NCBI GenBank assembly: GCA_019057795.1 | Contig: JAHLWS010000052.1 | Span: 1-64,000 of the forward strand | From: Promethearchaeota archaeon | GTDB lineage: Archaea > Asgardarchaeota > Lokiarchaeia > Sigyniarchaeales > SOKP01 | DNA: 64,000 nucleotides | Direction of reading: 5' to 3' | Part shown: piece after piece, positions 24,431-42,383 of the stretch | Position numbering within the stretch: the stretch's first letter is position 1 | Layout: every line of letters begins with the position of its first letter | Notes under the pieces: model-generated | Told to the model about the DNA's origin: nothing | The model's database searches: none | The model's input: only the letters and a program-made list of their open reading frames with translations | Translations under genes and position numbers: made by a program

Positions 24431-25000
24431 ATGGAAGCTATAACAATTAATAGATATGTTCAAGTTATTTGTCCTGTGTGTAAAGCACAGAACACGGTAC
24501 GGATTCCTAAGTCCGTAATTAACCAAGCGTCTCATCTAACTACCGTTTCTGTTCCTAAAGGCGAAATTTGTCAACATCACTTCCAATTATTTATAGACAA
24601 AAATTTTAAAATACGTGGATACCAAAAAGTTGATTTTCAATTAGACTCCGAGAATGACAAAAAGAAGAAAAATCTAAGACATAATTACAAAGAAAATTAT
24701 GTAAATAGTTTAAAACTATACAAATCTTCAGTACCAAAGGACAATTCTATCAAAAATGTGCCAAAAAAGCCAGATAATAAAAAAGAAACAAAAAAAATCG
24801 AAGAGAACTTTAATAGAAAAAATCATAGAGCATTACAAGATATTTACGAAGAATTTTGGGAATTTATCAGTGATAACAATGAAATTTTTCAAAAATTTAT
24901 TGTTAAAGACAAAAAAAGAAGGTTTCTTTTGAATATGAATGAATTAACACCAGTTTCGGATCATAATTTTTTACAAACAGTTGACAAAACTGTGCAGTAA
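24431..25000 (+). CDS. Zn-binding hypothetical protein of a Lokiarchaeia-type family
   Basis: CPVC...ICQHHFQLFIDKNFKIRGYQKVDF. Confidence 0.6.
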   Translation: MEAITINRYVQVICPVCKAQNTVRIPKSVINQASHLTTVSVPKGEICQHHFQLFIDKNFKIRGYQKVDFQLDSENDKKKKNLRHNYKENYVNSLKLYKSSVPKDNSIKNVPKKPDNKKETKKIEENFNRKNHRALQDIYEEFWEFISDNNEIFQKFIVKDKKRRFLLNMNELTPVSDHNFLQTVDKTVQ

Positions 25001-25092: not shown

Positions 25093-26244
25093 ATGAGCAT
25101 AGGCGGATTAATAAAAAAAGAATTTGCTAGAATTAAATCTGATAAAAGAACTTTAATTCTATTATTTGCAATACCAATGATATTAATTGTCATTTTTGGG
25201 CTTACTACGGGCGTTGGACCCACGAAATTCTTTACCACTGCGATTATAACTCTCGATGAAATGCCTACTTACGATAATTTCCCGTCAAACACTTCTCACT
25301 ACGACGATATTTTTATCTCGATAATGGAACAAAATAGCACAATGTGGGATCTTTATCGATACTATAATAGTAGCAACAGTGTAGAATATGACGAAGCATA
25401 TATTCGGTGTATTAATTTATTAAAAAATGAAGTAATAGATGTTTTTATTGTACTCCCTCAAAATTTCTCAGAATCTGTAGCAAATAAAACTAATCCTACA
25501 TTAATCTATTACATTGATGGATCTGATCTAAGCGCTGTTGGTGCAATTGAGGTAGCTCTTCAAGAACCCCTCGCTCTTTTTCGCGTTGAGATTAATATGT
25601 TGGAAAACTTTACAATAATGGTTCCACATCTTGAATTTGGGGTGCCTTCGTGGGAGTCTCAATTGCTCAACTACGCATTGGCTCTGATTTTACCAATAAT
25701 AATAATTGGGACTACGATGAATTTAACATCTTTAACAATTGTTTCTGAGGGTCCACTTCCGCGAATGCTTATTACACCTACGGCAAAAAGAGATATTATC
25801 CTTAGCAAACTAATTGCAAACACTGTAATAATGATAATGCAAGCTACAGAAATATTCGTAATGACATCATTTTTCGGTTTATATAGTTTAGGCTCGTTAT
25901 TTAATTTTTATCTAGTTTTAATAATGATTGGCTTTAGTGGGATATCTATAGGTTTATTTATCTCTGCAATTAGCCCAACAGAACAAGGAGCTAATCAAAT
26001 GTACTTGATGCTGTTTATTATTATCATAATTTTTTCAGGAACTCTTATGCCGCCTGAATCATTGGGGAGTGCACGATTTCTTACAGACATACTTCCTTTA
26101 AGCCACGCTTCAGTTCTTATAACAGATATAACTTTAAGAGGGTTATCGTTAAATTTAGAACATGTGCTTTCTATTCTTTTAATTTCATTTGTTTTTCTAG
26201 TAATTGCTTATATTGCATATAAGTTTAAAAAATTGGATGTGTAA
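25093..26244 (+). CDS. ABC-2 type permease (YbhR/S-like) with large extracellular domain
   Basis: KEFARIKSDKR N-terminal motif, TM1, exoplasmic loop with N-x-S/T sequons, 5 TMs, FSG...P...LPLSH. Confidence 0.9.
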   Translation: MSIGGLIKKEFARIKSDKRTLILLFAIPMILIVIFGLTTGVGPTKFFTTAIITLDEMPTYDNFPSNTSHYDDIFISIMEQNSTMWDLYRYYNSSNSVEYDEAYIRCINLLKNEVIDVFIVLPQNFSESVANKTNPTLIYYIDGSDLSAVGAIEVALQEPLALFRVEINMLENFTIMVPHLEFGVPSWESQLLNYALALILPIIIIGTTMNLTSLTIVSEGPLPRMLITPTAKRDIILSKLIANTVIMIMQATEIFVMTSFFGLYSLGSLFNFYLVLIMIGFSGISIGLFISAISPTEQGANQMYLMLFIIIIIFSGTLMPPESLGSARFLTDILPLSHASVLITDITLRGLSLNLEHVLSILLISFVFLVIAYIAYKFKKLDV

Positions 26245-26247
26245 AGA

Positions 26248-27480
26248 ATGAAACGGAGCAACCAAATCAACGATAAATCGTCTAAAGATGCTAAATTAAA
26301 AAAATTTAATTTTAAGAATAGTACATTTCGATTACTTAGACAAATTAAAAAAGAATTTCAACTTTTATGGACTGACAAATTCAATATTTTTATAGCGTTA
26401 ATAGTTCCCCCACTTGTAGTTGCCTTATTAGGTGTAACCACTAACATTGGAGGCTCTACTTCCAATCCTATAGATTGTGTTTTAGTTTCCTACGATTCAA
26501 ACACGTTTATTAATGAAAATAATTTTACGGAATCAAATCTAGACGATTACAGTGCGAAATATGTTGAGGCTGTAAACAGTTCGAATTTATTAAACCTTGT
26601 ACAATTTTTTAACGCTACTGAAGATATTTATGCGATGGAAACAGCTAGAAATTACTTAACTTCAAAGAAAATTAAGATTATTATTGCAATTCCGGTGGAT
26701 TTTTCTGAATTGTTAACCTGGGGGTATCCTGGTTTAATAGATTGCATAATTGATTCATCAAATATGAGAAAAATTCAAAAGAATTTAAATGCTGTTTATG
26801 ACTCTATTAAAATTTTTGTCAACCAAAACAATTTAACCCCTCAATTTAATGTTAGTGGTTTTGCAGAATTCTCAATTCCTGAAGACTATAGTTTCACATA
26901 TAATTATAATATGGTACTTGTTCTCTCTTTTATGGTTATAGGCGTTGGGATGGTCTCAACAATCTTAATAATAGTTCAAGAAAAACCTATTGCGAGATTA
27001 TTGCTTACTCCCGTTAAAAGAGCAGAGATTCTATCTGCAAAATATATCACTTATACTTGCATTTTAATTGTTCAAGATCTTTCACTTGTTATAAGTGCCT
27101 TAGCCTTTGGATTATACTTAGTAGGATCAGTCTTTGATTTATTCCTCGCATTATTTATTTTAGGGTTTAACGGTCTTGCTATAGGAATTTTTATTAGTAC
27201 ATTCAGCAAAACTAAAACCCAAGCAAATCAATTATTTTTTGGAGTATTTCTAATTTTAATTTTGTTAAGTGGAATTTTTATCCCTATTGATGCTATGCCG
27301 ATTTATTTACAAGTAATAGCATATGCTCTTCCTTTATCTCATGGAAGTCCATTGATATCAGGAATAGTTACTAAAGGAAAATCAGTATTTGGTTTTGACT
27401 TTTTTACTTTATTAGGAGTAAGCATTTTTCTGTTGATTACTTCATATATAATATTTCAAAGAAGAAAGTATGAGGTGTAA
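26248..27480 (+). CDS. ABC-2 type permease, second subunit
   Basis: KEFQLLWTDK, LLTPV, LSGIFIPIDAMP, LPLSH. Confidence 0.9.
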   Translation: MKRSNQINDKSSKDAKLKKFNFKNSTFRLLRQIKKEFQLLWTDKFNIFIALIVPPLVVALLGVTTNIGGSTSNPIDCVLVSYDSNTFINENNFTESNLDDYSAKYVEAVNSSNLLNLVQFFNATEDIYAMETARNYLTSKKIKIIIAIPVDFSELLTWGYPGLIDCIIDSSNMRKIQKNLNAVYDSIKIFVNQNNLTPQFNVSGFAEFSIPEDYSFTYNYNMVLVLSFMVIGVGMVSTILIIVQEKPIARLLLTPVKRAEILSAKYITYTCILIVQDLSLVISALAFGLYLVGSVFDLFLALFILGFNGLAIGIFISTFSKTKTQANQLFFGVFLILILLSGIFIPIDAMPIYLQVIAYALPLSHGSPLISGIVTKGKSVFGFDFFTLLGVSIFLLITSYIIFQRRKYEV

Positions 27481-28519
27481 AATGGAGAATTCAAGTCCGT
27501 CTGATAATACAATGGTACTAGTAGATAACCTAACTGTCACCTTTGGGGAAAACCAAGTTGTGAAAGACGTATCTTTTAATGTGAAGCAAGGGGAAATCAT
27601 TGGTATGTTTGGAATCTCAGGCGCTGGAAAAACTACAATTATTAGGGTTCTAACATGTCAAATTGAAAAGAAAAATTGGAGTGGAAATGTAGTAGTTACG
27701 GGTTTAAACCCTCGCAAAAAAAGAAATCATTCAAAAATTCTAAATAATATTGGATACGTACCTCAACTAGAACTATTGAATTTATATTTTGAATTAGACC
27801 CTTTAAAAAATGTTGATGTGTTTACATCTACTTATGGAATGAACAAAAAAAAAGCAAGGGAAACCGCTGAAAAGCTGTTTAAAATATTAGACATTCCTGA
27901 GGACACTTGGAAAAAAAGAGTATCGCGGATGAGCGGGGGCGAAAAAAAGCGTCTTTCAATGGCTATTGGTTTAATACATAATCCCCAAGTTCTCTTTCTT
28001 GACGAACCCACAACTGGCGTTGATGCATCGAAACGCTATGATATACTCAGTTATCTAAAGAAGTTAAACCAGCATTTAAACACAACTATGTTTATTATTA
28101 CGCACGATTTAGAAGCAGCACTAATATGTGATAAAACTGCGATATTAAGGCAGGGGAAATTACTCGAATTTGACACGCCTCAAAAACTAATATCTTCTTT
28201 GCCAAGTGGGGGTTTAGTTGCGAGAATTTCAATCGAAAATTTAGATCAAAAAGTAATAAAAACGGTTCAAAAATTTAATTCAGTCAAAAATGTATTACGC
28301 GTTGGAAATGAAACTATCGAAGTATTAATGGAAAATTTTGAGAATAACTTACCTAAATTAATGAAATACTTATTTGAGAATGAAGTTAAAATTTATTCAA
28401 TGAGTAGGGATATTGCCAACTTTAGAAGATTCTTTCAGATTAGAATCCAAGAGGAAGAAGAAAAAGAAAATGAAGAAAATCTTTCTGAAATAAATAGTGA
28501 AGGTGGAATTATATCTTAA
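27470..28519 (+). CDS. ABC ATPase (DrrA/CcmA-like)
   Basis: GISGAGKT, GYVPQ, MSGGEKKR, LDEPT, ITHD. Confidence 0.95.
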   Translation: MRCKMENSSPSDNTMVLVDNLTVTFGENQVVKDVSFNVKQGEIIGMFGISGAGKTTIIRVLTCQIEKKNWSGNVVVTGLNPRKKRNHSKILNNIGYVPQLELLNLYFELDPLKNVDVFTSTYGMNKKKARETAEKLFKILDIPEDTWKKRVSRMSGGEKKRLSMAIGLIHNPQVLFLDEPTTGVDASKRYDILSYLKKLNQHLNTTMFIITHDLEAALICDKTAILRQGKLLEFDTPQKLISSLPSGGLVARISIENLDQKVIKTVQKFNSVKNVLRVGNETIEVLMENFENNLPKLMKYLFENEVKIYSMSRDIANFRRFFQIRIQEEEEKENEENLSEINSEGGIIS

Positions 28520-28557
28520 AATTAAGTCGGAAAAATGAAAAAAGACTAAAAAATTTT

Positions 28558-31500
28558 ATGATAGTCTGTATTCTTATAGGAACTCCAATCATAAGTTTGG
28601 TTTTAATAAATGTTCGTTGGACTTATTTTATTGACGAAAAAGACGTTGAACAAGTTAAAAATATGGCAACTTCATTTACAAGCACGCACCATAACGATGT
28701 AGGACTTTTTGTAGAACCAGAAATTGATTCAAATTTTAGAGCTATTGATTCTATTAATTTCACATTTTCAAGTATTTATGCTCCTGAATTAATAAATCCT
28801 AATTATAATCTAAATATTGAGTCTTTTTCCCGTAATTTCTTTTTTGATTACATCTTTGAAAAACAAAATATCGATGGATCCTATTCAGATATAGCGGGAT
28901 TTGGAAATATGTTTTCAACCTATGAAGCAATCGAAACTTTAGAAATAGCCAATAAATCGTATCTTGAACGCAAGATAAATCTTAATGACACGAGTAATAT
29001 CGCAAATTACCTTTCAACTTCTTTAAATGAAGGGGGATGGGGTTTTAAGGCTAATCAGTTCTTAAACGATTCTGACATTATTTCTACATTCTGTGCGATT
29101 GAACTCGCCTATAGTTTATCAGAGAGTTCTTTACTTCTAAATCATAATATTGAAAAATTTATTAATTCCACATGGTTTGGAGGTAGTTATCGATCAACAA
29201 ATGTTTCTTTAGCTTCAAATCCAGAAACGACCTTCTATGGTATAAGAGCTTTTTTAGGTATGAATATGTCTTATAATTTTATTGAAAATTTATCTATTGC
29301 ACTTTATTTTAATTCATTATATAACCCTTTCGATGGGGGCTATATTAACACTGAAACGGGTATTAGTGATGTCAAATCAACTTATTACGCCATTTCTTCG
29401 CTAGATTTATTAGGGCTTTCTTCAACTTTAGTAAACGCTTCTAAAACATTAGAATATGTCTTAAATTGTTCAAATAATGATGGAGGGTTTGGTACACATC
29501 CAAATGTAACTAAATCTGATTTCACATCTGGTTGGGCAGCAATGAAATCAATTAAGATTTTAGAAAGCATATTACTTCTTACTCAAGAAGTAACTGATGT
29601 TCTAAAACAAATTAAAATTAATTACTATAAATGGCTACACTTTTTCCAAGCAAAAAACGCTCTATTTGGGCAAATAACAATTGAAACTAATTATTTTGGA
29701 ATTTTAACTTATTTTAGTATGGGTTATCTCGATTCAATACAGACCGCGCAATTTCAATACATAAAAATCAATATCTTAAATTTTACAAAAGCATGTTATA
29801 ATATTAACGATGGAGGATTTGGTTCGCAACCAGGTCAAGAAGCATCGCTTTTTGCAACGTATTGTGGATTAAAACTGTTGCAAATGCTTAATCCCGCAAA
29901 TCGACCTTGGGATCCTAATACTTTAAATCTAACACTGACAAAAAATTTCTTGTCTAGCTTGCAAAATTCTGATGGAGGTTTCAGAGTTGGAAACGATATC
30001 GATTATTTACTATCTCTTTTCGGATCTTATTCTATAGTTTTTACTAATTTAATCAATACGAATGTGTCCACTGTAGAAAGTACATATTGGGCATTAGTTT
30101 CTCTAGAATTAATTAATGGGTTAGATAAGATTCATTATAATAATCTTTCTCAATGGGTAAGGTCGTGCCAAAACGCTGATGGAGGATTTTCTATCGTTAT
30201 AGGATTTCATAGCGATGTTATATCTACATATTACGGTTTGCAAATCTTTTACGAGGGTTTTGTTGATGGTCCAATGTCTAAGATGACCGCAATTGGTTTT
30301 TTAAAGCTTTCGCAAACTTCCGATGGAAGTTTTTCCCTTTTACCCATGATGGGGGGATTTTTAGATTTACCTTCATCTTTTCTAGTGACCTATCTTGCTT
30401 CTAAAGCTCTTTACGACTATAACTTTCAACCTGATAGCATTCAAGAAGCTTTAATCTGGTTTTCGGGATGTATAAGCACCAACACGGGAGGAATAGGAGA
30501 TAACCCTGATTTTGGAGCTGATTTACGAAATTCTCCCTATGGAATTATAATTATAGACGAATTAAAATATGACCAGAGTTTTGATTCAAAACCTTGGAAT
30601 CAATTATTAATTTATATCTTACTTACTGAAGCTGGATTTATAGGTCTATATATATTTTTAAAAATTCGCAAAAGACTCTCGTTAATCAAAAGAATTATAG
30701 AAAAAGTAGGTTTGGGAGGGAAAATTACACCATCCTATCTTCAAAGGTTTTCAGCAATTCATTGTGAAAATTTCAGCGTATATGCGGGTGGTAAGTTAAT
30801 TGTTGATTCTGTTACAATGAAAATAGATCATGGGCAAATATTAGGAATCTTAGGGGAAAGTGGGGCAGGAAAGTCGACTTTTGTAAAAGGGTTGTTGGGA
30901 ATGAGAAAAATTACGGGATTTTGTAAAATTTATGGAATGGACATTAATAAAAAAAATTCTAAAAAGTTAAGACCAATATACGGCTATGTTCCCCAAGATC
31001 TAGGGAAAATCTATCATAATTTTACTGTCTTTGAAAACCTGTTATATTTTGGAAATCAATATGGGTTAACAGAACAAGAAATAATAAGTAGGTCTAGGAG
31101 ACTTTTGCGTAATCTTGAAATTGAAGATAAATTTAATGCACTCGTGAGAAACCTTTCGGGGGGCGAAAAAAGAAGGGTTAGCATTGCAATTGGGCTAATT
31201 CACGCCCCAATTTTTCTTATTTTAGATGAACCTACTTCAGGATTAGATCCAATAATACGCGAAAACTTATGGTTAGCCTTTACAAAAATCAACGAGCAAT
31301 TTGGAACTACTCTAATTGTTATAACTCATTACCCCGAAGAATCTCGCTTCTGCCATCGCGTTGCTATTTTCGGCAGAAATCGCGGCGTTATAGACTTTGG
31401 GAAACCAAAAGATCTTTTAGCTCAATTACCTGGAAAAGGACGTTCTATAGAAGTATGTTTCAAAGAACTAAAAGAAAATTTAATTGAAACGCTCGAATCT

Positions 31501-31704
31501 ATAGATGGTATAGAAAGCGTTCTTGAAAATAAAGCGGGAACTGATTATTCGTTATTTACCGAATTAAACTTAAAAGAACTAATTGAAAAAATCGAAAATG
31601 AAATTGGTAAAGATTCCATCCAAGAAATAAAGCAAATCGATTCTAAAATGGAACAATTCTTTAGATACAAATTAATTGAGGTGCCTGAAATTGAAGAACT
31701 CTAG
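28558..31704 (+). CDS. Prenyltransferase/squalene-cyclase-repeat (PFTB) ectodomain + TM + ABC ATPase fusion
   Basis: N-terminal hydrophobic anchor. About 10 repeats of (Q)NxDGG[FW] followed by (S)TY[YWC][AG]hxxLxLh. Many N-x-S/T sequons. TM near 30601-30660 followed by KIRKR. Intact GESGAGKS/LSGGEKRR/LDEPT/ITH. Confidence 0.85.
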   Translation: MIVCILIGTPIISLVLINVRWTYFIDEKDVEQVKNMATSFTSTHHNDVGLFVEPEIDSNFRAIDSINFTFSSIYAPELINPNYNLNIESFSRNFFFDYIFEKQNIDGSYSDIAGFGNMFSTYEAIETLEIANKSYLERKINLNDTSNIANYLSTSLNEGGWGFKANQFLNDSDIISTFCAIELAYSLSESSLLLNHNIEKFINSTWFGGSYRSTNVSLASNPETTFYGIRAFLGMNMSYNFIENLSIALYFNSLYNPFDGGYINTETGISDVKSTYYAISSLDLLGLSSTLVNASKTLEYVLNCSNNDGGFGTHPNVTKSDFTSGWAAMKSIKILESILLLTQEVTDVLKQIKINYYKWLHFFQAKNALFGQITIETNYFGILTYFSMGYLDSIQTAQFQYIKINILNFTKACYNINDGGFGSQPGQEASLFATYCGLKLLQMLNPANRPWDPNTLNLTLTKNFLSSLQNSDGGFRVGNDIDYLLSLFGSYSIVFTNLINTNVSTVESTYWALVSLELINGLDKIHYNNLSQWVRSCQNADGGFSIVIGFHSDVISTYYGLQIFYEGFVDGPMSKMTAIGFLKLSQTSDGSFSLLPMMGGFLDLPSSFLVTYLASKALYDYNFQPDSIQEALIWFSGCISTNTGGIGDNPDFGADLRNSPYGIIIIDELKYDQSFDSKPWNQLLIYILLTEAGFIGLYIFLKIRKRLSLIKRIIEKVGLGGKITPSYLQRFSAIHCENFSVYAGGKLIVDSVTMKIDHGQILGILGESGAGKSTFVKGLLGMRKITGFCKIYGMDINKKNSKKLRPIYGYVPQDLGKIYHNFTVFENLLYFGNQYGLTEQEIISRSRRLLRNLEIEDKFNALVRNLSGGEKRRVSIAIGLIHAPIFLILDEPTSGLDPIIRENLWLAFTKINEQFGTTLIVITHYPEESRFCHRVAIFGRNRGVIDFGKPKDLLAQLPGKGRSIEVCFKELKENLIETLESIDGIESVLENKAGTDYSLFTELNLKELIEKIENEIGKDSIQEIKQIDSKMEQFFRYKLIEVPEIEEL

Positions 31705-33400: not shown

Positions 33401-34213
33401 GTGAATATGCTTAAAAATCTTTATATTATAGACGAGAACGGAGTTTTATTATATTCCAAAAATTTTGTGAGAGAACAAAAGTACGACGATAATTTATTAA
33501 TAGGTTTTTTCACATCTATTACTAACTTTAGTAGGGAAGCCTTAGGTACGGCAGTTAAAACCGTTAATCTTGGGGAAAACAATAAACTTATCATCGTCAC
33601 AAAACAAGAAGAACGGTTACTCGGAGCCGCGATCGTGAGTTCAAATGATAACAACGAATTAGTCGCTAAAATTTTGAAAAACATTTTACAGGAATTTATC
33701 GATTCCTATTCGCCTGATTATGACACAGAAAAAATAATTCAAGAAGAAATGGAAAAAAACATTCAAAGCAATTTAAAAGGAAAAGTTATAAGCTCCCCCA
33801 TAATTAGAGTGGGGATATCGTGGTTAATTAACGGTTCGCTTATCTACCCTTTAATTTTACTCAGTATTTATACTACTCTTTTTATATTTGCGGCTTTTGA
33901 CCTAACTCAATATCTATATGGTGATGATCTGTTTACAAAATTTTTTCCGGCTTTGATTCTGTTATCAACTGGAAATATCATAATTTTATTTCTATTTCCT
34001 AATTTTCTTTTTGGGATTTTATCTCCAAATAGAAGAGTTGCCATTGCGAACTCTATCATCCATTTAGCTGTAACTATTGTGTTATTTGCCTACTCAGCAG
34101 AACCAGCTTTTGCCTACATCGTTATAGGGCATTTACCGTTAACATTGATTTTCTCTTTGTTTTTCTTGTTTGCCGGCATAAGATTCTCTTCAAAAAGGTT
34201 TTTAAAGAAATAA
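33401..34213 (+). CDS. Longin domain + about 4 TM helices
   Basis: LYIIDENGVLLYSK...LLIGFFTSITNF...KILKNILQEFIDSY longin pattern; hydrophobic C-terminal half. Confidence 0.75.
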   Translation: MNMLKNLYIIDENGVLLYSKNFVREQKYDDNLLIGFFTSITNFSREALGTAVKTVNLGENNKLIIVTKQEERLLGAAIVSSNDNNELVAKILKNILQEFIDSYSPDYDTEKIIQEEMEKNIQSNLKGKVISSPIIRVGISWLINGSLIYPLILLSIYTTLFIFAAFDLTQYLYGDDLFTKFFPALILLSTGNIIILFLFPNFLFGILSPNRRVAIANSIIHLAVTIVLFAYSAEPAFAYIVIGHLPLTLIFSLFFLFAGIRFSSKRFLKK

Positions 34214-34396: not shown

Positions 34397-34777
34397 ATGG
34401 TATGTGGTATAATGGTTTCAGTATTTATCGTAGAAGACGATTTGTCGTTGCAAAGGTTATATGAGATAATGCTAAAGACTTTCGGATTTGAAGTCGTTGA
34501 TAAAGCGAGCAACGGAAAAGAAGCCATTGAAAAATTCAAATCCCTATCGCCTAAACCGGATGTAATAATAATGGACCATCGAATGCCAGTTAAAAATGGA
34601 ATTGACACGACCATTGAATTGATGAAGTTCAATAACCACACTAAAATTGTTTTTACAAGCGCAGATAAGTCAATTAAAGGACGAGCGCTTGAAATAGGTG
34701 CTATTTCTTTTATCGAAAAACCATTTACCGTAATTCAACTACAAAACGAAATCAATAGAGTAGTTAACTTAGTTTAA
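34397..34777 (+). CDS. Single-domain response regulator (CheY-like)
   Basis: VEDD, MDHRMP (phospho-Asp), TS, IEKP. Confidence 0.9.
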   Translation: MVCGIMVSVFIVEDDLSLQRLYEIMLKTFGFEVVDKASNGKEAIEKFKSLSPKPDVIIMDHRMPVKNGIDTTIELMKFNNHTKIVFTSADKSIKGRALEIGAISFIEKPFTVIQLQNEINRVVNLV

Positions 34778-34990: not shown

Positions 34991-36478
34991 ATGAGTTATA
35001 AATTACCAGATGATAAAGATTTAGATGCCATGATTGGTATTGTAGGCAAAGATTATGCTACCAATAACAAAGCAATTACAGCGTCATATCTTTCCAAATC
35101 TGTAATGGGATTAGAAGCCCAAATTCCGGATATCGTCGTGCGCCCCAAATACGTGGAAGAGATTCGTAAAATTCTACTTTACTGCTCTGCAGAAAAAATT
35201 GCAGTCTCACCGATTTCAGGCGGACTATCTGGCGGCTTTGCTTGCCCAACCATTAAGCCTGCTGGAGTTATGCTTGATTTAGGTAGAATGAATAGAATTA
35301 TCGAAGTCGATACAGATAATCGATACGTCATAGTCGAACCGGGAGTCACAATTGGCGAGCTTTGGGCTTACATGCACAAAAATTACCCAGAGTGGGCGCC
35401 CCCCGTACCAGACGGTGCTCCACCAGCTTCTACCGTAATGGGCGATGCTATCGATCGAGGGTTTTCGCTTTATACAAGTTCTGTAGGCCCACAGGGCGAT
35501 AACTTCATGTGTGGTGAGATAGTATTTCCAAACGGAGATATTGTGCGAACCGGCTCTTGGGCACTTCCATTTGCGAAACCATTCTATAAATACGGATTAG
35601 GTCCAGATATCTGGTCCTTTTTGATGGGTTCACAAGGAACTCTAGGCGTAATGACTAAAGTTGCTGTTAAGATTTACCCACATCCAAAATTTAAGACTGT
35701 AGTTGTATGGGGTATGTCCAATCCTGAGGATATGCAGGACCTAACACTTGAAATTGGAAAACAAGAATTTGGAATTGCTCACAACACCGTTATGGTTCAA
35801 GGAGGGAATTATCCTTTAGTAATGACGCGTTGGCCAAAAGATAAAATTCCTCACGATTACGAATTCTACGAACAGTTAGGAATTAGTAAGTGGTGGATGA
35901 ATTGGGAGTGCTGGGCACAAACTCAAGAAGAGTTAGATTATGTGGTTAATAGAATCAATAAAATGGCTGAGGATTTCAAGAAAAACAGAGCTAAAGACCC
36001 TGAAAGCATGAAACCTCAGGAACTACATCCCAAACAAATCGCAAGCAGATTGAAGAAACCCAATAAGATTGCAGTTCCGTATTCCTTTTGGGAGGCAGGA
36101 TTTTTATTTATTACTTTCTACTGCCCTTGGAACGAATGTGCACATTTTGCTAACATGTATACTGCTGCTATGGAGAAATATGGTTTTCCACCAGTTATGT
36201 GGATTGCTAGTATTGAGCGTTGTAGGCAAGCAATTTGTATGCCAATTATTTGTTTCGATAGCACAAAACAATCAGATATCGAAAAAGTTCAAGAGATGAA
36301 TAGAGAAACAACAGAATATGCGCTTAAGCAAGGATGGTTGAATTATCGTCCAGATCCATACATCCACGCACCTCTCACTTATTCTCAAGCAGGAATGTAT
36401 TGGAAATATTTGAGAACGATGAAGAAGATTTTTGATCCTAATATGATAATGCATCCTGGGAGGCTTGCTCTTCCATAA
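34991..36478 (+). CDS. FAD-binding oxidoreductase (VAO/PCMH-like)
   Basis: PDIVVRP, VEPGVT, GPDIWSFLMGSQGTLGVMTK, FDPNMIMHPGR. Confidence 0.85.
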   Translation: MSYKLPDDKDLDAMIGIVGKDYATNNKAITASYLSKSVMGLEAQIPDIVVRPKYVEEIRKILLYCSAEKIAVSPISGGLSGGFACPTIKPAGVMLDLGRMNRIIEVDTDNRYVIVEPGVTIGELWAYMHKNYPEWAPPVPDGAPPASTVMGDAIDRGFSLYTSSVGPQGDNFMCGEIVFPNGDIVRTGSWALPFAKPFYKYGLGPDIWSFLMGSQGTLGVMTKVAVKIYPHPKFKTVVVWGMSNPEDMQDLTLEIGKQEFGIAHNTVMVQGGNYPLVMTRWPKDKIPHDYEFYEQLGISKWWMNWECWAQTQEELDYVVNRINKMAEDFKKNRAKDPESMKPQELHPKQIASRLKKPNKIAVPYSFWEAGFLFITFYCPWNECAHFANMYTAAMEKYGFPPVMWIASIERCRQAICMPIICFDSTKQSDIEKVQEMNRETTEYALKQGWLNYRPDPYIHAPLTYSQAGMYWKYLRTMKKIFDPNMIMHPGRLALP

Positions 36479-36500
36479 CTGAGTAAGGAGGTAAAAAAAA

Positions 36501-37859
36501 ATGGCTAAAACTGGAATGGAAAGATTAAAAGAATTGGAGAAGGAAATATATAAGTGTATCCACTGTAAAGCGTGTAGGTTTGCTTATTCGGGAGAGCCTA
36601 GTAAAAACGGAATAGGGGAGTTCGCTGGAAAACAAGGTACAGTTCTTTACGAAGGAATGGTTGACTCGTGTCCAGCTGGAATAGAATACGGTTGGGAAGC
36701 GTTTTGGAACGCCGGTAAAATTTGGATCGCTCGTTCAATTTTAAGCGGAGATTTAGAATTCTCTGACGAAGTAAGGGATGTTATTATGCCGTGCATTACA
36801 TGCGGACAATGTGCAGCCCAATGTGAAAATAAAATACCCACAGTAGACATCATTGAATCTTTACGGGCTGCCTGTGTAGAATCGGGCGTCTCTATGATTG
36901 AGAAACATGAATTAGTCGATCGCTTAGTCAAGGAATTAAACAATCCTTACGGCGGGAAGGCAGAAGAGCGGTTTAAATGGGCTAAAGACGCTGGTTTAGG
37001 GAAATATATTAACAATAAAAGCGCTAAGGTTGGTTATTACGTCGGATGTACGGCGAGTTATCGTCAAATAGAGGTTGCTACTGCTACAGCAAAAATATTC
37101 GAAGAGTTAGGGATTGATTTTACATTAATCGAAGACGAAGTGTGTTGCGGGAGCCCTTTCTTTAGGATTGGCGCCGTTGATACTGCTCAAGAGTTAATGA
37201 GGAAAAATCTCGAGGCTTTTAAGGATTTAGAAACGGTCTATTTCTCATGTGCGGGTTGTTATAGGACTATAACGATTGATTATCCCAAGTGGATGGCAGA
37301 AGACGAGAAACTCCCTTTCAAAACCATGCACGCGTTTGAATTAGTTTCAAAATTAATCACTGAAGGAAAGATTAAGTTCAAACCTAATAAAGAACTTAAG
37401 GGAAAAGTTGTAACCTATCACGACCCCTGTCATACAGGAAGACATTTTGCGCTTGACATGGAACAAGAAATGATCAAGAACTCCAAGAACCTAATGTTTG
37501 ATATGCGCAAAGTAAACAAAGCGATCGACGAATGGTTTGAGATTCCTAGAGTTATTTTACGAAAACTTGAAGAAGACGTCGGTATCAAGTTTGTTGAGAT
37601 GTATCGGATAAAGAATAATTCAATGTGTTGTGGAGCAGGCGGAGGAGTGAGGGCTGGTTATCCCGACTTTTCATTGCGCACAGCTAGTCTTCGATGCGAC
37701 GAGGCTAATGCGGTAAAGGCTGACATTCTAACAACCGAATGCCCCTTTTGTTGGAGAAATTTAAGCGATGCTAATGATCTTTACAATCATGGTATGCAGG
37801 TAATGGGCGTTCTGGAAATGATATCCACATACAATCTTTTAGATAAATCAAACATGTAA
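36501..37859 (+). CDS. HdrD/GlpC-like Fe-S CCG protein
   Basis: CIHCKAC, CITCGQCAAQC, CCG, HDPCH, CCGAGGG, ECPFC; GGAGG SD. Confidence 0.9.
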   Translation: MAKTGMERLKELEKEIYKCIHCKACRFAYSGEPSKNGIGEFAGKQGTVLYEGMVDSCPAGIEYGWEAFWNAGKIWIARSILSGDLEFSDEVRDVIMPCITCGQCAAQCENKIPTVDIIESLRAACVESGVSMIEKHELVDRLVKELNNPYGGKAEERFKWAKDAGLGKYINNKSAKVGYYVGCTASYRQIEVATATAKIFEELGIDFTLIEDEVCCGSPFFRIGAVDTAQELMRKNLEAFKDLETVYFSCAGCYRTITIDYPKWMAEDEKLPFKTMHAFELVSKLITEGKIKFKPNKELKGKVVTYHDPCHTGRHFALDMEQEMIKNSKNLMFDMRKVNKAIDEWFEIPRVILRKLEEDVGIKFVEMYRIKNNSMCCGAGGGVRAGYPDFSLRTASLRCDEANAVKADILTTECPFCWRNLSDANDLYNHGMQVMGVLEMISTYNLLDKSNM

Positions 37860-37979: not shown

Positions 37980-40900
37980 TTGACTAATATAGAACACAAA
38001 ACGGCCTATCCTTATATTACGGAATTTAAAAAAGAACCATTTAGATCTTTTGTTTTTGTTAAAAGAAGGGAAATTGGGAGTTTTTATCTTAGTGATTACG
38101 AAAAGGTCTTAGAATTATATCAGACTTACAACAAAAGTTTGTTAAATGAATCCAATTTACTTTTAGAGAATATATATTGGTTTCTTTTGTTAAGGAAATA
38201 TCTCAAGCAAAAAAAGAATGATTATAGAGAAGAGTTTTTAGAATTTATAAAAAGTTGCGAAGTTGAAATTATTGAAAAAGATCAATTAGGTTTTAAAGCC
38301 TCTCCAAATTCCACTAAAAAACCTGATGTTTGGTCATCGTATTTTGCATTAGCAAGTTTAAAATTGTTAGGAGTTTTGAAGGAATATCTTTCTTCAAAGG
38401 GTCAGAATGAAAATATCAGAAAAATTAAAAACTTTATTTACGACCATAAAAGAAACAACGGATTTTTGCACTGTCTAGATAAAGAATGTGCAGAAGATAA
38501 TAAAACGCCTGACGCTAAAACCCTATATTTCGTAATTGAGAGCTTAATCCTTCTTGGTGTAGATGTACGGTTATTCAAGGAGCAATTTCGTCAATATATT
38601 AACGATCGGAAAAAAGATATTTCCGTAATTTTTAAGTTATTATGTCTTAAATTCTTTGATTTAGATTCAGATGTAAAAGATAAAGAAATTCAATTTCTCT
38701 ATTCGTTTCAAAAAGATCACGGGGGATTTGGTTTTGATTCTGAAGATGGGGAAGTTTCTACTACTTTTTGGCTTGTAAATGTTCTTGATGTATATTCATG
38801 GTTAATTGATTATAATCCCGCGATGATTTATTCTTTTATCACAAAAAGTTTAGACACCATATTAAAAGAACGGGAAAGATGGAGTTTAAGGATCTTAACA
38901 GAAGTATCACAATTAGTAATTTTGTTATCTTTAATATGGCATCGCTTTATCGAAGAGATTGAAAGAGTTGTGTTTAAACGCTTAGAAGAGCATAACTTTA
39001 TAGATTTAAACCAAATTAAAACAACATTTGGTTTGAGTTATGGAATAGAAGAAATCATCTTGTACATTAATCTTAATTACACCATAAATTTAAGTATCAT
39101 AGACAATGCGGTAGAATTCAATCTCTATCTTCAAAACCTTAGTCAAGGTAAAAAAATTATTATTGAGGAAATCTATAACCAACTGAGCAAAAATAGCATT
39201 ATATCTCTTTCTGATATTTTTAAGAGGTATAAAGCTTCTTACCATTATGAACCTATAAAATTGAAAGAAGATATTTTTCCTTTAATTTACGACTTAATTA
39301 GCAATCATTTTTTTGAAGGAGAAATTAGAACTAAAAAAGCTTTTTTATTTAGAACTAAATTTTATTTATGTCTGGACTTTTTTTTTGAGAAAGTAATTGT
39401 TTCTGATAACGAGATAAATACGGAGAGGTTATACGAGGAAAAGGCGAAATTAAAAGATTTCAAAAACGATATATATAATATGACATTAAAATTAGAGAAC
39501 ACTATTCCACAGATTAGAGAAGAAATTGAATCTTATCTTTTATTAGACGAAGTTGAGTTTGCTAAAGAAAGGTTAAAGTTTATATTGCGAAACGCATTGA
39601 TGGAAGCTGATTTCTTAAACGAAAACATTGAAACTGGGTTTAATCAAGAATTAATTTATATTAATTTACAAGCTACATTAGGGTCTGAAATATCGCAATG
39701 GAACAAATCATATTCGCTTTTGCGGAATAGATTGAATGAATTAAATAAATATCTTCAAGGAAGAATCCAAGAAAAAGAACAATTAAAAAAGTATATTGTA
39801 ATCTTAGATGAATTAGATACTAAGGTATATAATATTCAAGATTATATAAATCGCGAGTTAGATTCTTTTAAGAGTTTTGTTGTAGAAATTCTTGAAGACG
39901 GGTATAGTAAGGAAAAATTTGATCTTATCATTCAAGAGTTTACCAAGATATCGCAATATGTAAATAAATATGATGGAATCGTCTACAAAATTTCTCACCA
40001 AATTACAGAAAAGGAAAAAAAAGTTGCCAAAAAACATAGAAAAATAATTAATAATTGGGTTAATTTTAAGGAGAATTTTGATTCGATTTTTGCAGATTAC
40101 ACGAATGGATTTCAATTTTTTAACGAATTAAATGAAAAAATCGGGAATGTCAAGGATAATATCCAAGCGGGTATATTAGAAATAAAAGAAAATGTGAAAA
40201 GTAAAGTTATTAATAATGAATTTCATGACGCGTTTAAAACCATCAAAAAGGAAGCCAACATTTTATTAAAACAAAAAACTGAAGAAATTAAAGATTTAAA
40301 ATCGATTGTAAAAAAGGAAATAAAATTCAAACAAAAGCTTTACCTTCTCTATAAATACTTGCAGGAGAAGTTAGATCGTCTTGAAGTGAACATTATTGAT
40401 TTAGTAGCTGAACACATCCAATTTATAAAGGAAAAAGTTATTGAAGAGAGAAATAGGGCAAAGATTGAAGATTTTGATAATTTTCTATCTAGTACAATCA
40501 CACACTTCAAAGATAAATTAGAGAATTATAAAATATATCTCGATCAAAATAGAATTAAAAAAATTGTCAATATAGTTATAGGTTTTGACAAGATACTTAT
40601 TGAATTTAACGAGTATAATAAGAAATTTTCTAAAAAGTTAATTGATCTAAAAGAAATTGTTGAAGAAAATTCAATTACAACAATACAATGGAATAAATTT
40701 AAAGATTTTTTAAACGAAGAAATAACCAAATTAAAAGAAGAATATGTAGATAACATAATTTCTAACGAAATAATATTTATGAGTAAGGAAAAAAACACAG
40801 ATAAAATAGATATTAAGAAACTAGCTAGCAAATTAGACCTCAAATGTAAAGCAGTAATTCCAAGGATAAAGAATTTGATAGAAATTTCCAAATTACAAGG

Positions 40901-42383
40901 AGATTTATTTGAAGATAAAAAGGAACTAATAGTTCATACAAAGGAGTATTACAAGAGTCGAGAGCTAAAAAATTACGTAGAAAACAGGATTTTAAAACAA
41001 ACGCATGAATCAATTGGAAAATTTTTAGCACTTTACGATTCTTGTATAAAAAATAAAACTTTAGGAGTAAATTTGTTAGAAATTCAGAATAGAATTGATG
41101 ATTTGAGCAAATTAGAGGAAACTGTTAATAAGCGATACGATATGAAGATTAAAGAGTTAAATGTTGACGAAGCAAGAATTGAAACCATGGAGCTCAAAAA
41201 AAGCGTTAACTCAATTATCAGTAATAATCGGTTAGCAATAGAAAATATAAAACAGAATCTAATACTTTTTAATGAGTTACTAAATTTTATAAGCAGCAAA
41301 TATAACGCTCTTCAAATAGAAGTTAATAATCTTTTTGATAAACTCTCGGAAGACATTGAAAGGATCGAAGTTTACGGGAAAATGAGAGAAATTCTTGAAA
41401 GTAGAAAGAAAAAAGTCGAAATTAAATTTAAGCTAGTTGACGAAAAGATCGAAGAAAAGTTGAATTTAGTTATTAATAATACTTACGAATCAAGAAAATT
41501 TGAGACTGAAGCAAGAGAATTCTACATTAAGAAAAAGAATGAAACGCTAAAAAGGTACGAAGAAAAGGTATATCTCATTAACGAACAGATAAATACTTTA
41601 AGATTTGAGACTTGTCGCGACAAATTATTGATTAATATAAATAAGAATAAAGTTCATTTGAGTCAATTATTAGGTACCCTTCAAGCGAGAGTTGAAGATT
41701 ATATTGAAACAGAACAATTTAAAAGGGCAGCTCTAAAAGTAAATAAAAGACAAAAAAACATTGAACAAGAATTAAAAGATGTTAATAAAAGAAACAAAGA
41801 ACTAATTAAAGAATTTAACAGGCAATCAAATAATTTTGAAACTAAAAATAAACACATAATTGATGAATTTGAGCGTTTTATAAAAGAGTTTAGCGACATT
41901 TTAAGGGAGAAAGTTAAATCCTTAGAAGAGTTGGTGATAAAATCGTACGTTAAAATGGCAATAAAAGCTGTTGCTAACGAATTTCTTACGTTAAGCTTTT
42001 TACAGAATGAATTAAAAATAAAAAAACAGCAAATCCAAAAACATCTTATTTCATTGATTAGCGCTGGAAAATTGAATGGAAAATTCGATCCCCAAATTGG
42101 GTTGTACTACGAAAATCCAGATGTCTTAGCAAAGTTGGATGACAAAGAGTTAGAAGTTATAAAGAAAATGAATTTTCGAGTATACATGTTTATTAGGCGT
42201 TTAAAGAATTTTACAAACCAGTACGGGTCAATCATTGCTTTCTTTGCCTCAATCTTAACGATATCATATTATATCTTCCGACTCAGTGGAGAAAATCCAA
42301 TTACAATTTTAATTCCTGTTCTTTTGACGTTAATAGTATTCTTTTTCTTCTTTTTCAAAAAAAGGAAGGAAGATAAAATTTGA
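37980..42383 (+). CDS. Large protein: PFTB prenyltransferase-like repeats + PCI/winged helices + coiled coils + C-terminal TM hairpin
   Basis: KPDVWSSYFALASLKLLG, FQKDHGGFGF...STTFW repeats. WH-like IDIKKLASKLDL...IKNLIEISKLQG and LSFLQNELKI...LISAGKLNGKFD. Long K/E heptads. Two terminal TMs followed by KKRK. Confidence 0.65.
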   Translation: MTNIEHKTAYPYITEFKKEPFRSFVFVKRREIGSFYLSDYEKVLELYQTYNKSLLNESNLLLENIYWFLLLRKYLKQKKNDYREEFLEFIKSCEVEIIEKDQLGFKASPNSTKKPDVWSSYFALASLKLLGVLKEYLSSKGQNENIRKIKNFIYDHKRNNGFLHCLDKECAEDNKTPDAKTLYFVIESLILLGVDVRLFKEQFRQYINDRKKDISVIFKLLCLKFFDLDSDVKDKEIQFLYSFQKDHGGFGFDSEDGEVSTTFWLVNVLDVYSWLIDYNPAMIYSFITKSLDTILKERERWSLRILTEVSQLVILLSLIWHRFIEEIERVVFKRLEEHNFIDLNQIKTTFGLSYGIEEIILYINLNYTINLSIIDNAVEFNLYLQNLSQGKKIIIEEIYNQLSKNSIISLSDIFKRYKASYHYEPIKLKEDIFPLIYDLISNHFFEGEIRTKKAFLFRTKFYLCLDFFFEKVIVSDNEINTERLYEEKAKLKDFKNDIYNMTLKLENTIPQIREEIESYLLLDEVEFAKERLKFILRNALMEADFLNENIETGFNQELIYINLQATLGSEISQWNKSYSLLRNRLNELNKYLQGRIQEKEQLKKYIVILDELDTKVYNIQDYINRELDSFKSFVVEILEDGYSKEKFDLIIQEFTKISQYVNKYDGIVYKISHQITEKEKKVAKKHRKIINNWVNFKENFDSIFADYTNGFQFFNELNEKIGNVKDNIQAGILEIKENVKSKVINNEFHDAFKTIKKEANILLKQKTEEIKDLKSIVKKEIKFKQKLYLLYKYLQEKLDRLEVNIIDLVAEHIQFIKEKVIEERNRAKIEDFDNFLSSTITHFKDKLENYKIYLDQNRIKKIVNIVIGFDKILIEFNEYNKKFSKKLIDLKEIVEENSITTIQWNKFKDFLNEEITKLKEEYVDNIISNEIIFMSKEKNTDKIDIKKLASKLDLKCKAVIPRIKNLIEISKLQGDLFEDKKELIVHTKEYYKSRELKNYVENRILKQTHESIGKFLALYDSCIKNKTLGVNLLEIQNRIDDLSKLEETVNKRYDMKIKELNVDEARIETMELKKSVNSIISNNRLAIENIKQNLILFNELLNFISSKYNALQIEVNNLFDKLSEDIERIEVYGKMREILESRKKKVEIKFKLVDEKIEEKLNLVINNTYESRKFETEAREFYIKKKNETLKRYEEKVYLINEQINTLRFETCRDKLLININKNKVHLSQLLGTLQARVEDYIETEQFKRAALKVNKRQKNIEQELKDVNKRNKELIKEFNRQSNNFETKNKHIIDEFERFIKEFSDILREKVKSLEELVIKSYVKMAIKAVANEFLTLSFLQNELKIKKQQIQKHLISLISAGKLNGKFDPQIGLYYENPDVLAKLDDKELEVIKKMNFRVYMFIRRLKNFTNQYGSIIAFFASILTISYYIFRLSGENPITILIPVLLTLIVFFFFFFKKRKEDKI

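Follow-up and report, generated by a model that had tools for sequence, protein, structure and literature searches.

The window analysed here, a stretch of 64,000 nucleotides (nt) from contig JAHLWS010000052.1 of a Promethearchaeota archaeon (Asgardarchaeota), contains at positions 28558 to 31704 (+ strand) a single open reading frame (ORF) of 1048 amino acids (aa) with no internal stop. The encoded protein joins a prenyltransferase-type repeat domain, through a transmembrane (TM) helix, to an ABC ATPase. Judging from the sequences of the gene and its neighbours, this fusion protein is probably one of the ATPase subunits in a heteromeric type-V exporter that comprises two different permeases and two different ATPases. 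What appears new is an ABC-2 exporter with a predicted exterior module fused to its ATPase. We lean modestly towards the reading that the complex is an ABC-2, ABCA/ABCH-like exporter whose ATPase subunit brings its own exterior binding module for amphipathic, probably isoprenoid-based, cargo. A literature search of limited scope found no description of a toroid-ABC ATPase fusion, and the databases label the family by its domains only.

From the N-terminus onwards, the fusion protein has a K/R-rich tail with a hydrophobic anchor, then prenyltransferase-type repeats over about 650 aa, a TM helix (residues 680-703), a group of basic residues and the ABC ATPase. In Pfam searches the Prenyltrans family (PF00432, 2.7e-35) was matched by three stretches within the first 650 residues, and ABC_tran (PF00005, 1.8e-25) by residues 750-894. 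The repeat motif DGG[FY] was located at residues 259, 308, 418, 472 and 541, along with degenerate copies, and STYY or STYW at residues 274, 508 and 556. The original prediction, made from the DNA letters and a list of reading frames, had described such repeat units, and its observation on this ORF was correct in the main points; its interpretation, which saw a non-catalytic isoprenoid-binding cup linked to the ATPase, was supported in part.

The place of the fusion protein in an exporter follows from its neighbourhood, which was compared in nine related loci with identities from 33 % to 76 %. The genes for both permeases, a free-standing ATPase and the fusion protein were present in eight of the nine loci, the ninth being without the first permease only, and the free-standing ATPase was syntenic in all nine. 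Eight loci had a gene for a degenerate ATPase-like protein, and in five of them a gene for a longin-like membrane protein was present too. In one locus the gene order was shuffled and the gene set kept, and the six-gene operon as such is maintained down to 33-36 % identity. Because this operon, with its permeases and second ATPase, is conserved, the fusion protein is assigned as one ATPase subunit of a type-V exporter, and the free-standing ATPase is its likely dimer partner. As a rule, ABC ATPases are separate proteins or form one chain with a permease, and the original prediction had stressed the unusual tie of this one to an ectodomain rather than to a permease. A permease is not lacking, however: the conserved operon has genes for two ABC-2 permeases and another ATPase directly upstream.

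The full six-helix ABC-2 fold is present in both permeases, each with an exterior domain that lies between TM1 and TM2. With a pLDDT of 80.9, the model of the second one gave its best fold match with the ceramide exporter ABCH-9C (2.3e-13), followed by ABCG5/G8, NosY and ABCA7. The free-standing ATPase is intact and is 31 % identical to the fused ATPase over 325 residues that cover the ATPase and the C-terminal domain. The degenerate ATPase-like protein shares 24 % identity with the fused ATPase in the helical and C-terminal parts, has lost the motifs, and carries an N-terminal part of 300 aa without family assignment. In the longin-like protein the longin matches are N-terminal and the hydrophobic stretches lie in the C-terminal half.

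All motifs of a working nucleotide-binding domain (NBD) were located in the fused ATPase: Walker A at residue 766, the Q-loop (Q813), LSGG at 866, Walker B at 886-891 with the catalytic Glu (E891), the D-loop at 894-897 and the H-loop (H924). Walker A, the Q-loop, the signature, the Walker B Glu, the D-loop and the H-loop were invariant in 32 homologues (down to 35 % identity), so the ATPase is complete and catalytically intact, as had been proposed. The closest solved sequences are ABCA3, ABCA4, ABCA1 and ABCA7 (8e-55 to 1e-40), and the family profile aligns to ABCA3 past the NBD, to profile position 1030.

Compared with ABCA1/3/4/7 and ABCH-9C, the fused ATPase with its C-terminal domain is closest to ABCA, and the permeases share the Pfam family of these exporters as well as a TM1-TM2 exterior domain and have ceramide-bound ABCH-9C as their best fold match. 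In contrast to these exporters, the Asgard system is made of four separate polypeptides and has its exterior module on the ATPase subunit, not on the permease; the toroid fold of this module is unrelated to the exterior domains of ABCA. A membrane-anchored accessory protein with a lipid- or cargo-handling exterior domain likewise docks on the ABC core in MlaFEDB (MlaD), LptB2FGC (LptC) and NosDFY (NosD), of which NosY is among the permease fold matches. MlaD, LptC and NosD are separate chains with other folds, whereas the Asgard exterior module is covalently joined to the ATPase.

The AlphaFold model of the fusion protein, built on 38 sequences (mean pLDDT 90.8, pTM 0.88), shows 12 repeats of outer helix, loop and inner helix in the ectodomain. 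In structural comparisons the model matched prenyltransferase beta subunits with Z 25-29 over about 285 residues at 2.5-3.2 Å, the values for 6o60_B and 1n4p_B being 28.8 and 27.2. The single-toroid matches all but one extend from model residue ~25 to ~672, and ent-copalyl diphosphate synthase (5bp8_A) aligns to residues 80-371 alone. Squalene-hopene cyclase (1gsz) and oxidosqualene cyclase (1w6k) could be aligned collinearly over 463 residues (Z 17.6, root-mean-square deviation (rmsd) 7.7 Å) and 479 residues (Z 16.8, rmsd 8.0 Å), respectively. The model thus presents the ectodomain as two prenyltransferase-fold toroids. The GGTase-beta-like fold of the original prediction is borne out by these matches; its single toroid has become two.

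In sequence alignments the halves 24-345 and 343-680 are each collinear with whole RabGGTase-beta-like proteins, which fits two tandem toroids arranged end to end. Since the toroid is cyclic, sequence alone cannot decide between a tandem and a nested arrangement. The tandem layout was dropped in favour of the nested one in view of the ~25-672 matches and the 80-371 cyclase match, and the aligned ranges are most simply read as a nesting of the kind known from class II terpene cyclases. By this reading the hairpin of residues 24-65, which is followed by a 28-residue loop of lower model confidence, and the last five repeats (397-675) would together form a membrane-proximal toroid, and residues ~94-388 a second toroid inserted into it. 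Conservation is clearly higher in the membrane-proximal toroid than in the inserted one; the former is the most conserved region of the ectodomain, and its invariant residues include Q538, D541, G542, G543, F544, D648, P650, F652, G653 and N658.

The beta subunits of protein prenyltransferases (RabGGTase/GGTase-3, GGTase-I and FTase; PF00432) share with the fusion protein the alpha6/alpha6 toroid and the sequence repeats, in collinear order. The fusion protein differs from them in having two toroids, predicted to lie outside the cell, flanking membrane segments, a fused ABC ATPase and no needed or evident alpha subunit. The source genome gave only sub-threshold matches to the PPTA repeats of the alpha subunit (PF01239), a point that is irrelevant if the toroids lie outside. 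Class II terpene cyclases (1gsz and 1w6k), didomain proteins with gamma inserted in beta, have two toroids as well; in the fusion protein the aligned ranges would place one toroid behind the first hairpin of the other. The rmsd of 7.7-8.0 Å points to a different domain orientation in the fusion protein, which is anchored by two TM helices, whereas the cyclases are monotopic.

A motif search of the whole fusion protein found no D-x-C, no DxDD and no C-x-EQ thioester motif (searched as C[GASL]EQ), and thioester, cyclase and prenyltransferase chemistry were rejected for the toroids. In the alignments, the Zn ligands of RabGGTase beta (D238, C240 and H290) have S607, L609 and N658 as their counterparts in the membrane-proximal toroid; in the other half the counterparts are D271, K273 and T323. 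As there is no D-x-C at all in the protein, the loss of the Zn site does not depend on the repeat register. The absence of the DxC ligands of prenyltransferases and of the DxDD of squalene cyclases, both noted earlier, is thereby established. The diphosphate-binding residues of RabGGTase beta (R232, K235 and H190) are also replaced: all three positions have non-basic residues in both halves, that of H190 being D553 in the membrane-proximal toroid.

Around the former metal site there are nevertheless some of the best-conserved positions of the family (D553, D648, P650, F652, G653, D655, L656, R657 and N658), and the hairpin 359-381, with the invariant W359 and N378, is equally conserved. We read the region of the former metal site as a probable binding surface or interface. 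It could alternatively be the active site of an enzyme of undescribed type, e.g. glycan- or lipid-processing, that acts on the exported cargo. An invariant polar cluster at the metal and diphosphate site of prenyltransferases, with N658 at the position of His290, D553 at that of His190, and D655, R657 and D648 nearby, would suit such an enzyme, as would the many glycosidases of the same fold, which the model matches at Z 15-18. We nonetheless consider an enzyme unlikely, because the protein shows none of the catalytic motifs known from toroid families and the glycosidase matches, at 6-10 % identity, reflect no more than the common fold. The thioester domain of alpha2-macroglobulin and complement was matched at only Z 15-16.

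A hydropathy scan revealed two membrane-grade segments only, at residues 1-22 and 682-703. The original prediction had the ectodomain tethered through one TM helix; instead, two membrane segments bracket it. No small residues at -3/-1 were seen after segment 1 in the family alignment, and this segment is probably an uncleaved signal anchor. Segment 2 is one continuous helix in the AlphaFold model, and its sequence, like that of the linker between it and the ATPase, is poorly conserved.

The charges around both segments fit the positive-inside rule across the 32 homologues. The tail before segment 1, judged in the 15 homologues for which at least 11 tail residues are part of the called protein, has a net charge of +3 to +8, and the 15 residues after segment 1 are mostly neutral or acidic in the homologues, -4 to +2. 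The net charge before segment 2 is -4 to +1, negative in 30 of 32 homologues, and after it 0 to +6, positive in 31 of 32. K and R make up 5.3 % of the ectodomain vs 14 % of the cytoplasmic part. The exterior position of the repeat domain that had been proposed earlier fits this charge bias and composition and stays a prediction drawn from them, in which both termini of the protein would be inside and the toroids outside.

The N-x-S/T sequons, of which more than ten had been reported before the TM helix, number 15 in the ectodomain and three in the cytoplasmic part. While the count stood, the excess is hardly above composition: shuffles of the ectodomain with the same composition gave 10.2 +/- 2.8 sequons (p ~0.07). 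In nearly all homologues the sequon density of the ectodomain is higher, typically about twofold. A sequon is kept in at least half of the sequences at ten ectodomain columns, and also at three columns of the ATPase, there for structural reasons (e.g. within N-L-S-G-G). With a count near composition and conserved sequons in the cytoplasmic ATPase too, sequons were rejected as proof of location; they are compatible with an outside position of the toroids and are not evidence for it.

More than 100 protein clusters from independent sources, with 50-93 % identity, carry both domains, and their source names, where given, are all of Asgard lineages. Of 301 genomes searched in the phylum, about 38 have a full-length copy, most of these in one family, and three distant copies (31-35 % identity) occur in other families. 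When the ectodomain alone was searched against 1.84 billion representative proteins, 23 proteins were obtained at E <= 1e-30; those among them whose match spans the ectodomain from the beginning to residue ~700 are without exception 1042-1075 aa in length and of the fused form. An assembly artefact, a concern of the original prediction, or a gene-calling artefact that joined two genes is virtually inconceivable: nothing was found in its favour, and it was refuted by the single frame of about 1050 aa seen in these ~38 genomes, in the >100 independent clusters and in all full-length representatives. Of the 28 genomes of the genus, about 15 have the operon, the source genome included, and some complete genomes are without it. 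The fusion is stable, narrow and accessory, an accessory rather than a core function being concluded because the family is narrow and patchy. A paralogue search of the source genome found no second copy of the ectodomain; only four ORFs in this genome bear Prenyltrans matches.

In other Asgard families the toroid module was met in a different setting. A protein of 757-837 aa with the layout TM, double toroid, TM and without the ATPase is 23-26 % identical to the fusion protein over residues ~26-656. It shares the bitopic double-toroid layout and lacks the ATPase domain, and its gene neighbourhood is another one. Beside it is encoded a protein of 1370-1394 aa with a toroid ectodomain followed by at least seven TM helices, which in a Pfam scan of one of the four cassettes found (L022) matched 7TM_transglut and a sugar-transfer-associated ATP-grasp domain. 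The third protein of the cassette has a TM segment at each end and, in the same scan, was transglutaminase-like. The occurrence of the module without the ATPase supports the view that it is a self-contained unit bracketed by membrane segments, and by sequence the module appears to be reused with two different cytoplasmic ATP-using domains. Other double-toroid proteins (P0157 and P0158) weakly matched PF05817, the N-terminal domain of ribophorin II, which in eukaryotes is part of the oligosaccharyltransferase. A ribophorin II link was rejected for the fusion protein, which had no PF05817 match at E <= 0.01.

In the exporter that we favour by a small margin over doubt, the toroids would be fixed on the membrane, outside the cell, by very short linkers that flank the membrane-proximal toroid, and would lie next to the exterior domains of the permeases or on top of them. 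The permeases would extract amphipathic cargo from the membrane, and the toroids, one per pump, would receive, hold or cap it. The cargo would most likely be an isoprenoid-based lipid or a lipid-linked molecule; the support for a lipid is circumstantial and comes from the likeness of the partners to the ABCA and ABCH lipid exporters. The ATP-driven closure of the ATPase dimer may in addition move the toroids, because TM2 is one helix that runs from the toroid towards the ATPase.

Several points weigh against this exporter with its own cargo-binding module. The likeness of the ATPase to ABCA may in part reflect which ABC-2 ATPases have solved structures. The replaced diphosphate-binding residues suggest that isoprenoids, if bound at all, are bound in a different mode, and the polar cluster D553, D648, D655, R657 and N658 could mark a catalytic instead of a binding site. 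The patchy presence of the operon in the genus shows that it is not essential. By analogy, the sister cassette with its ATP-grasp and transglutaminase-like proteins raises the possibility of envelope polymers rather than a free lipid.

Envelope polymers also enter a reading in which the ABC-2 complex transports nothing and ATP hydrolysis drives conformational work of the outside toroids on an extracellular target, for example such a polymer. NosDFY, FtsEX and the MacB-type systems are precedents for mechanotransduction of this kind. The reading draws on the presence of NosY among the permease fold matches, on TM2 being modelled as a single helix that leaves the toroid, with short tethers at both ends, and on the toroid module elsewhere in Asgard that is joined to ATP-grasp via seven TM helices and stands beside a transglutaminase-like protein. 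It is put in doubt by the permeases, which have the full six-helix ABC-2 fold and a true lipid exporter as their best match, and by the poor conservation of TM2 and the linker, which speaks against a precise force-transmitting element. On balance, this mechanotransducer is regarded as rather improbable, although less so than the enzyme discussed above.

A ligand-binding fold, a TM helix and a cytoplasmic enzyme domain in one chain resemble single-pass receptors, and an external ligand on the toroids might activate or shut down the fused ATPase, and the pump with it. A gene for a response regulator follows shortly after the operon (34397-34777) and would suit such a regulator, but it is outside the set of genes conserved in the related loci. 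The linker between TM2 and the ATPase is not conserved either, and we know of no example of an ABC ATPase controlled through a fused ectodomain. Regulation of this type, which had been offered in the original prediction beside a lipid acceptor, seems to us a poor candidate.

An equally doubtful, more ambitious form of the exporter reading would make the complex an Asgard-specific machine in which an ATPase-driven nested double toroid pulls isoprenoid lipids or lipid-linked molecules from the membrane and hands them on outside. Its role could bear on membrane remodelling or on exchange between partners, and the module would be a non-enzymatic relative that links the prenyltransferase and terpene-cyclase branches of the fold.

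The covalent tie between the ATPase and a predicted exterior domain, made by a membrane helix, would fix the ratio of motor to module at one to one. If the module receives cargo, the system would offer a compact model for the hand-over of lipids to acceptors by type-V exporters such as ABCA and ABCH; if the ATPase moves the module, it would be a new form of ATP-driven work outside the cell. Non-enzymatic, surface-exposed uses of the prenyltransferase/terpene-cyclase fold are also predicted in the archaeal relatives of eukaryotes.

The true start of the fusion gene is probably 45 nt upstream of the called ATG (28558). The 15 codons 5' of this ATG encode a K/R-rich peptide that is conserved at the protein level in 18 related loci. 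In most of these loci the tail begins a few codons past an in-frame stop and, in the window too, 5-9 nt past a GGAGGTG-like box (GGAGGTG or GAAGGTG). In about half of the 18 loci the tail contains no ATG, GTG or TTG and has ATA, ATT or ATC at a conserved position. In the window this codon is ATC (28513), so placed that the extension overlaps the stop codon TAA (28517-28519) of the ATPase gene before it. A start at Ile (ATC, ATA or ATT), which we infer from these alignments, would explain the ragged N-termini given by gene callers in the fusion family. The coordinates of the features are collected in Table 1.

Table 1. Features of the probable exporter operon and of the fusion gene in the window, and the related toroid cassettes in other Asgard loci
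Feature	Position	Strand	Basis or remark
Two ABC-2 permease genes	25093-26244, 26248-27480	+	PF12698, 1.2e-23 and 4.6e-21
Free-standing second ABC ATPase	27470-28519	+	PF00005, 2e-25; drrA subfamily, 1.2e-57
Shine-Dalgarno-like box GAAGGTGG	28499-28506	+	Precedes the probable true start
Probable N-terminal extension, K/R-rich cytoplasmic tail, ATC (Ile) start	28513-28557	+	Tail conserved in 18 related loci
Membrane segment 1, residues 1-22, probably uncleaved signal anchor	28558-28623	+	Kyte-Doolittle peak 2.55; AlphaFold helix 2-17
First helix hairpin, residues 24-65, predicted to close the membrane-proximal toroid	28627-28752	+	Ranges of structural matches
Inserted toroid (predicted), residues ~94-388, six repeats, gamma-like, less conserved	28837-29721	+	5bp8_A match
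Membrane-proximal toroid (predicted), main part, residues 397-675, five repeats, beta-like	29746-30582	+	Collinear with RabGGTase-beta-like sequences
Membrane segment 2, residues 680-703, then KIRKR	30595-30666	+	Hydropathy peak 2.14; AlphaFold helix 677-706
ABC nucleotide-binding domain, residues 733-955	30754-31422	+	PF00005 and intact motifs
C-terminal domain after the ATPase, residues 956-1048, and stop codon	31423-31704	+	ABCA3 alignment; shared with the upstream ATPase
Degenerate ATPase-like protein, 573 aa	31676-33397	+	Weak ABC matches only
Longin-like membrane protein, 270 aa, last operon gene	33401-34213	+	Faint matches: PF19031, 0.004; PF04099, 0.007
Three-gene toroid cassette	L022:8113-15686, L023:3096-10888, L024:2203-9859, L025:2362-9957		Other Asgard families

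Further neighbours were noted in the window. A small Lys-rich protein with a weak match to a Brz-type zinc ribbon is encoded at 24431-25000, and its gene adjoins the operon in four related loci, on either side. At 37980-42383, 6 kb downstream, lies the gene for a second prenyltransferase-repeat protein, of 1467 aa, with a PCI-domain match near its C-terminus, too dissimilar to the ectodomain to be recovered in the search of its own genome. Positions 34991-37859 contain a GlcD/GlcF-like pair of genes, one of the FAD-oxidase and one of the CCG/4Fe-4S type; this pair is 75-90 % identical in the related loci and is far better conserved than the adjoining ABC operon.

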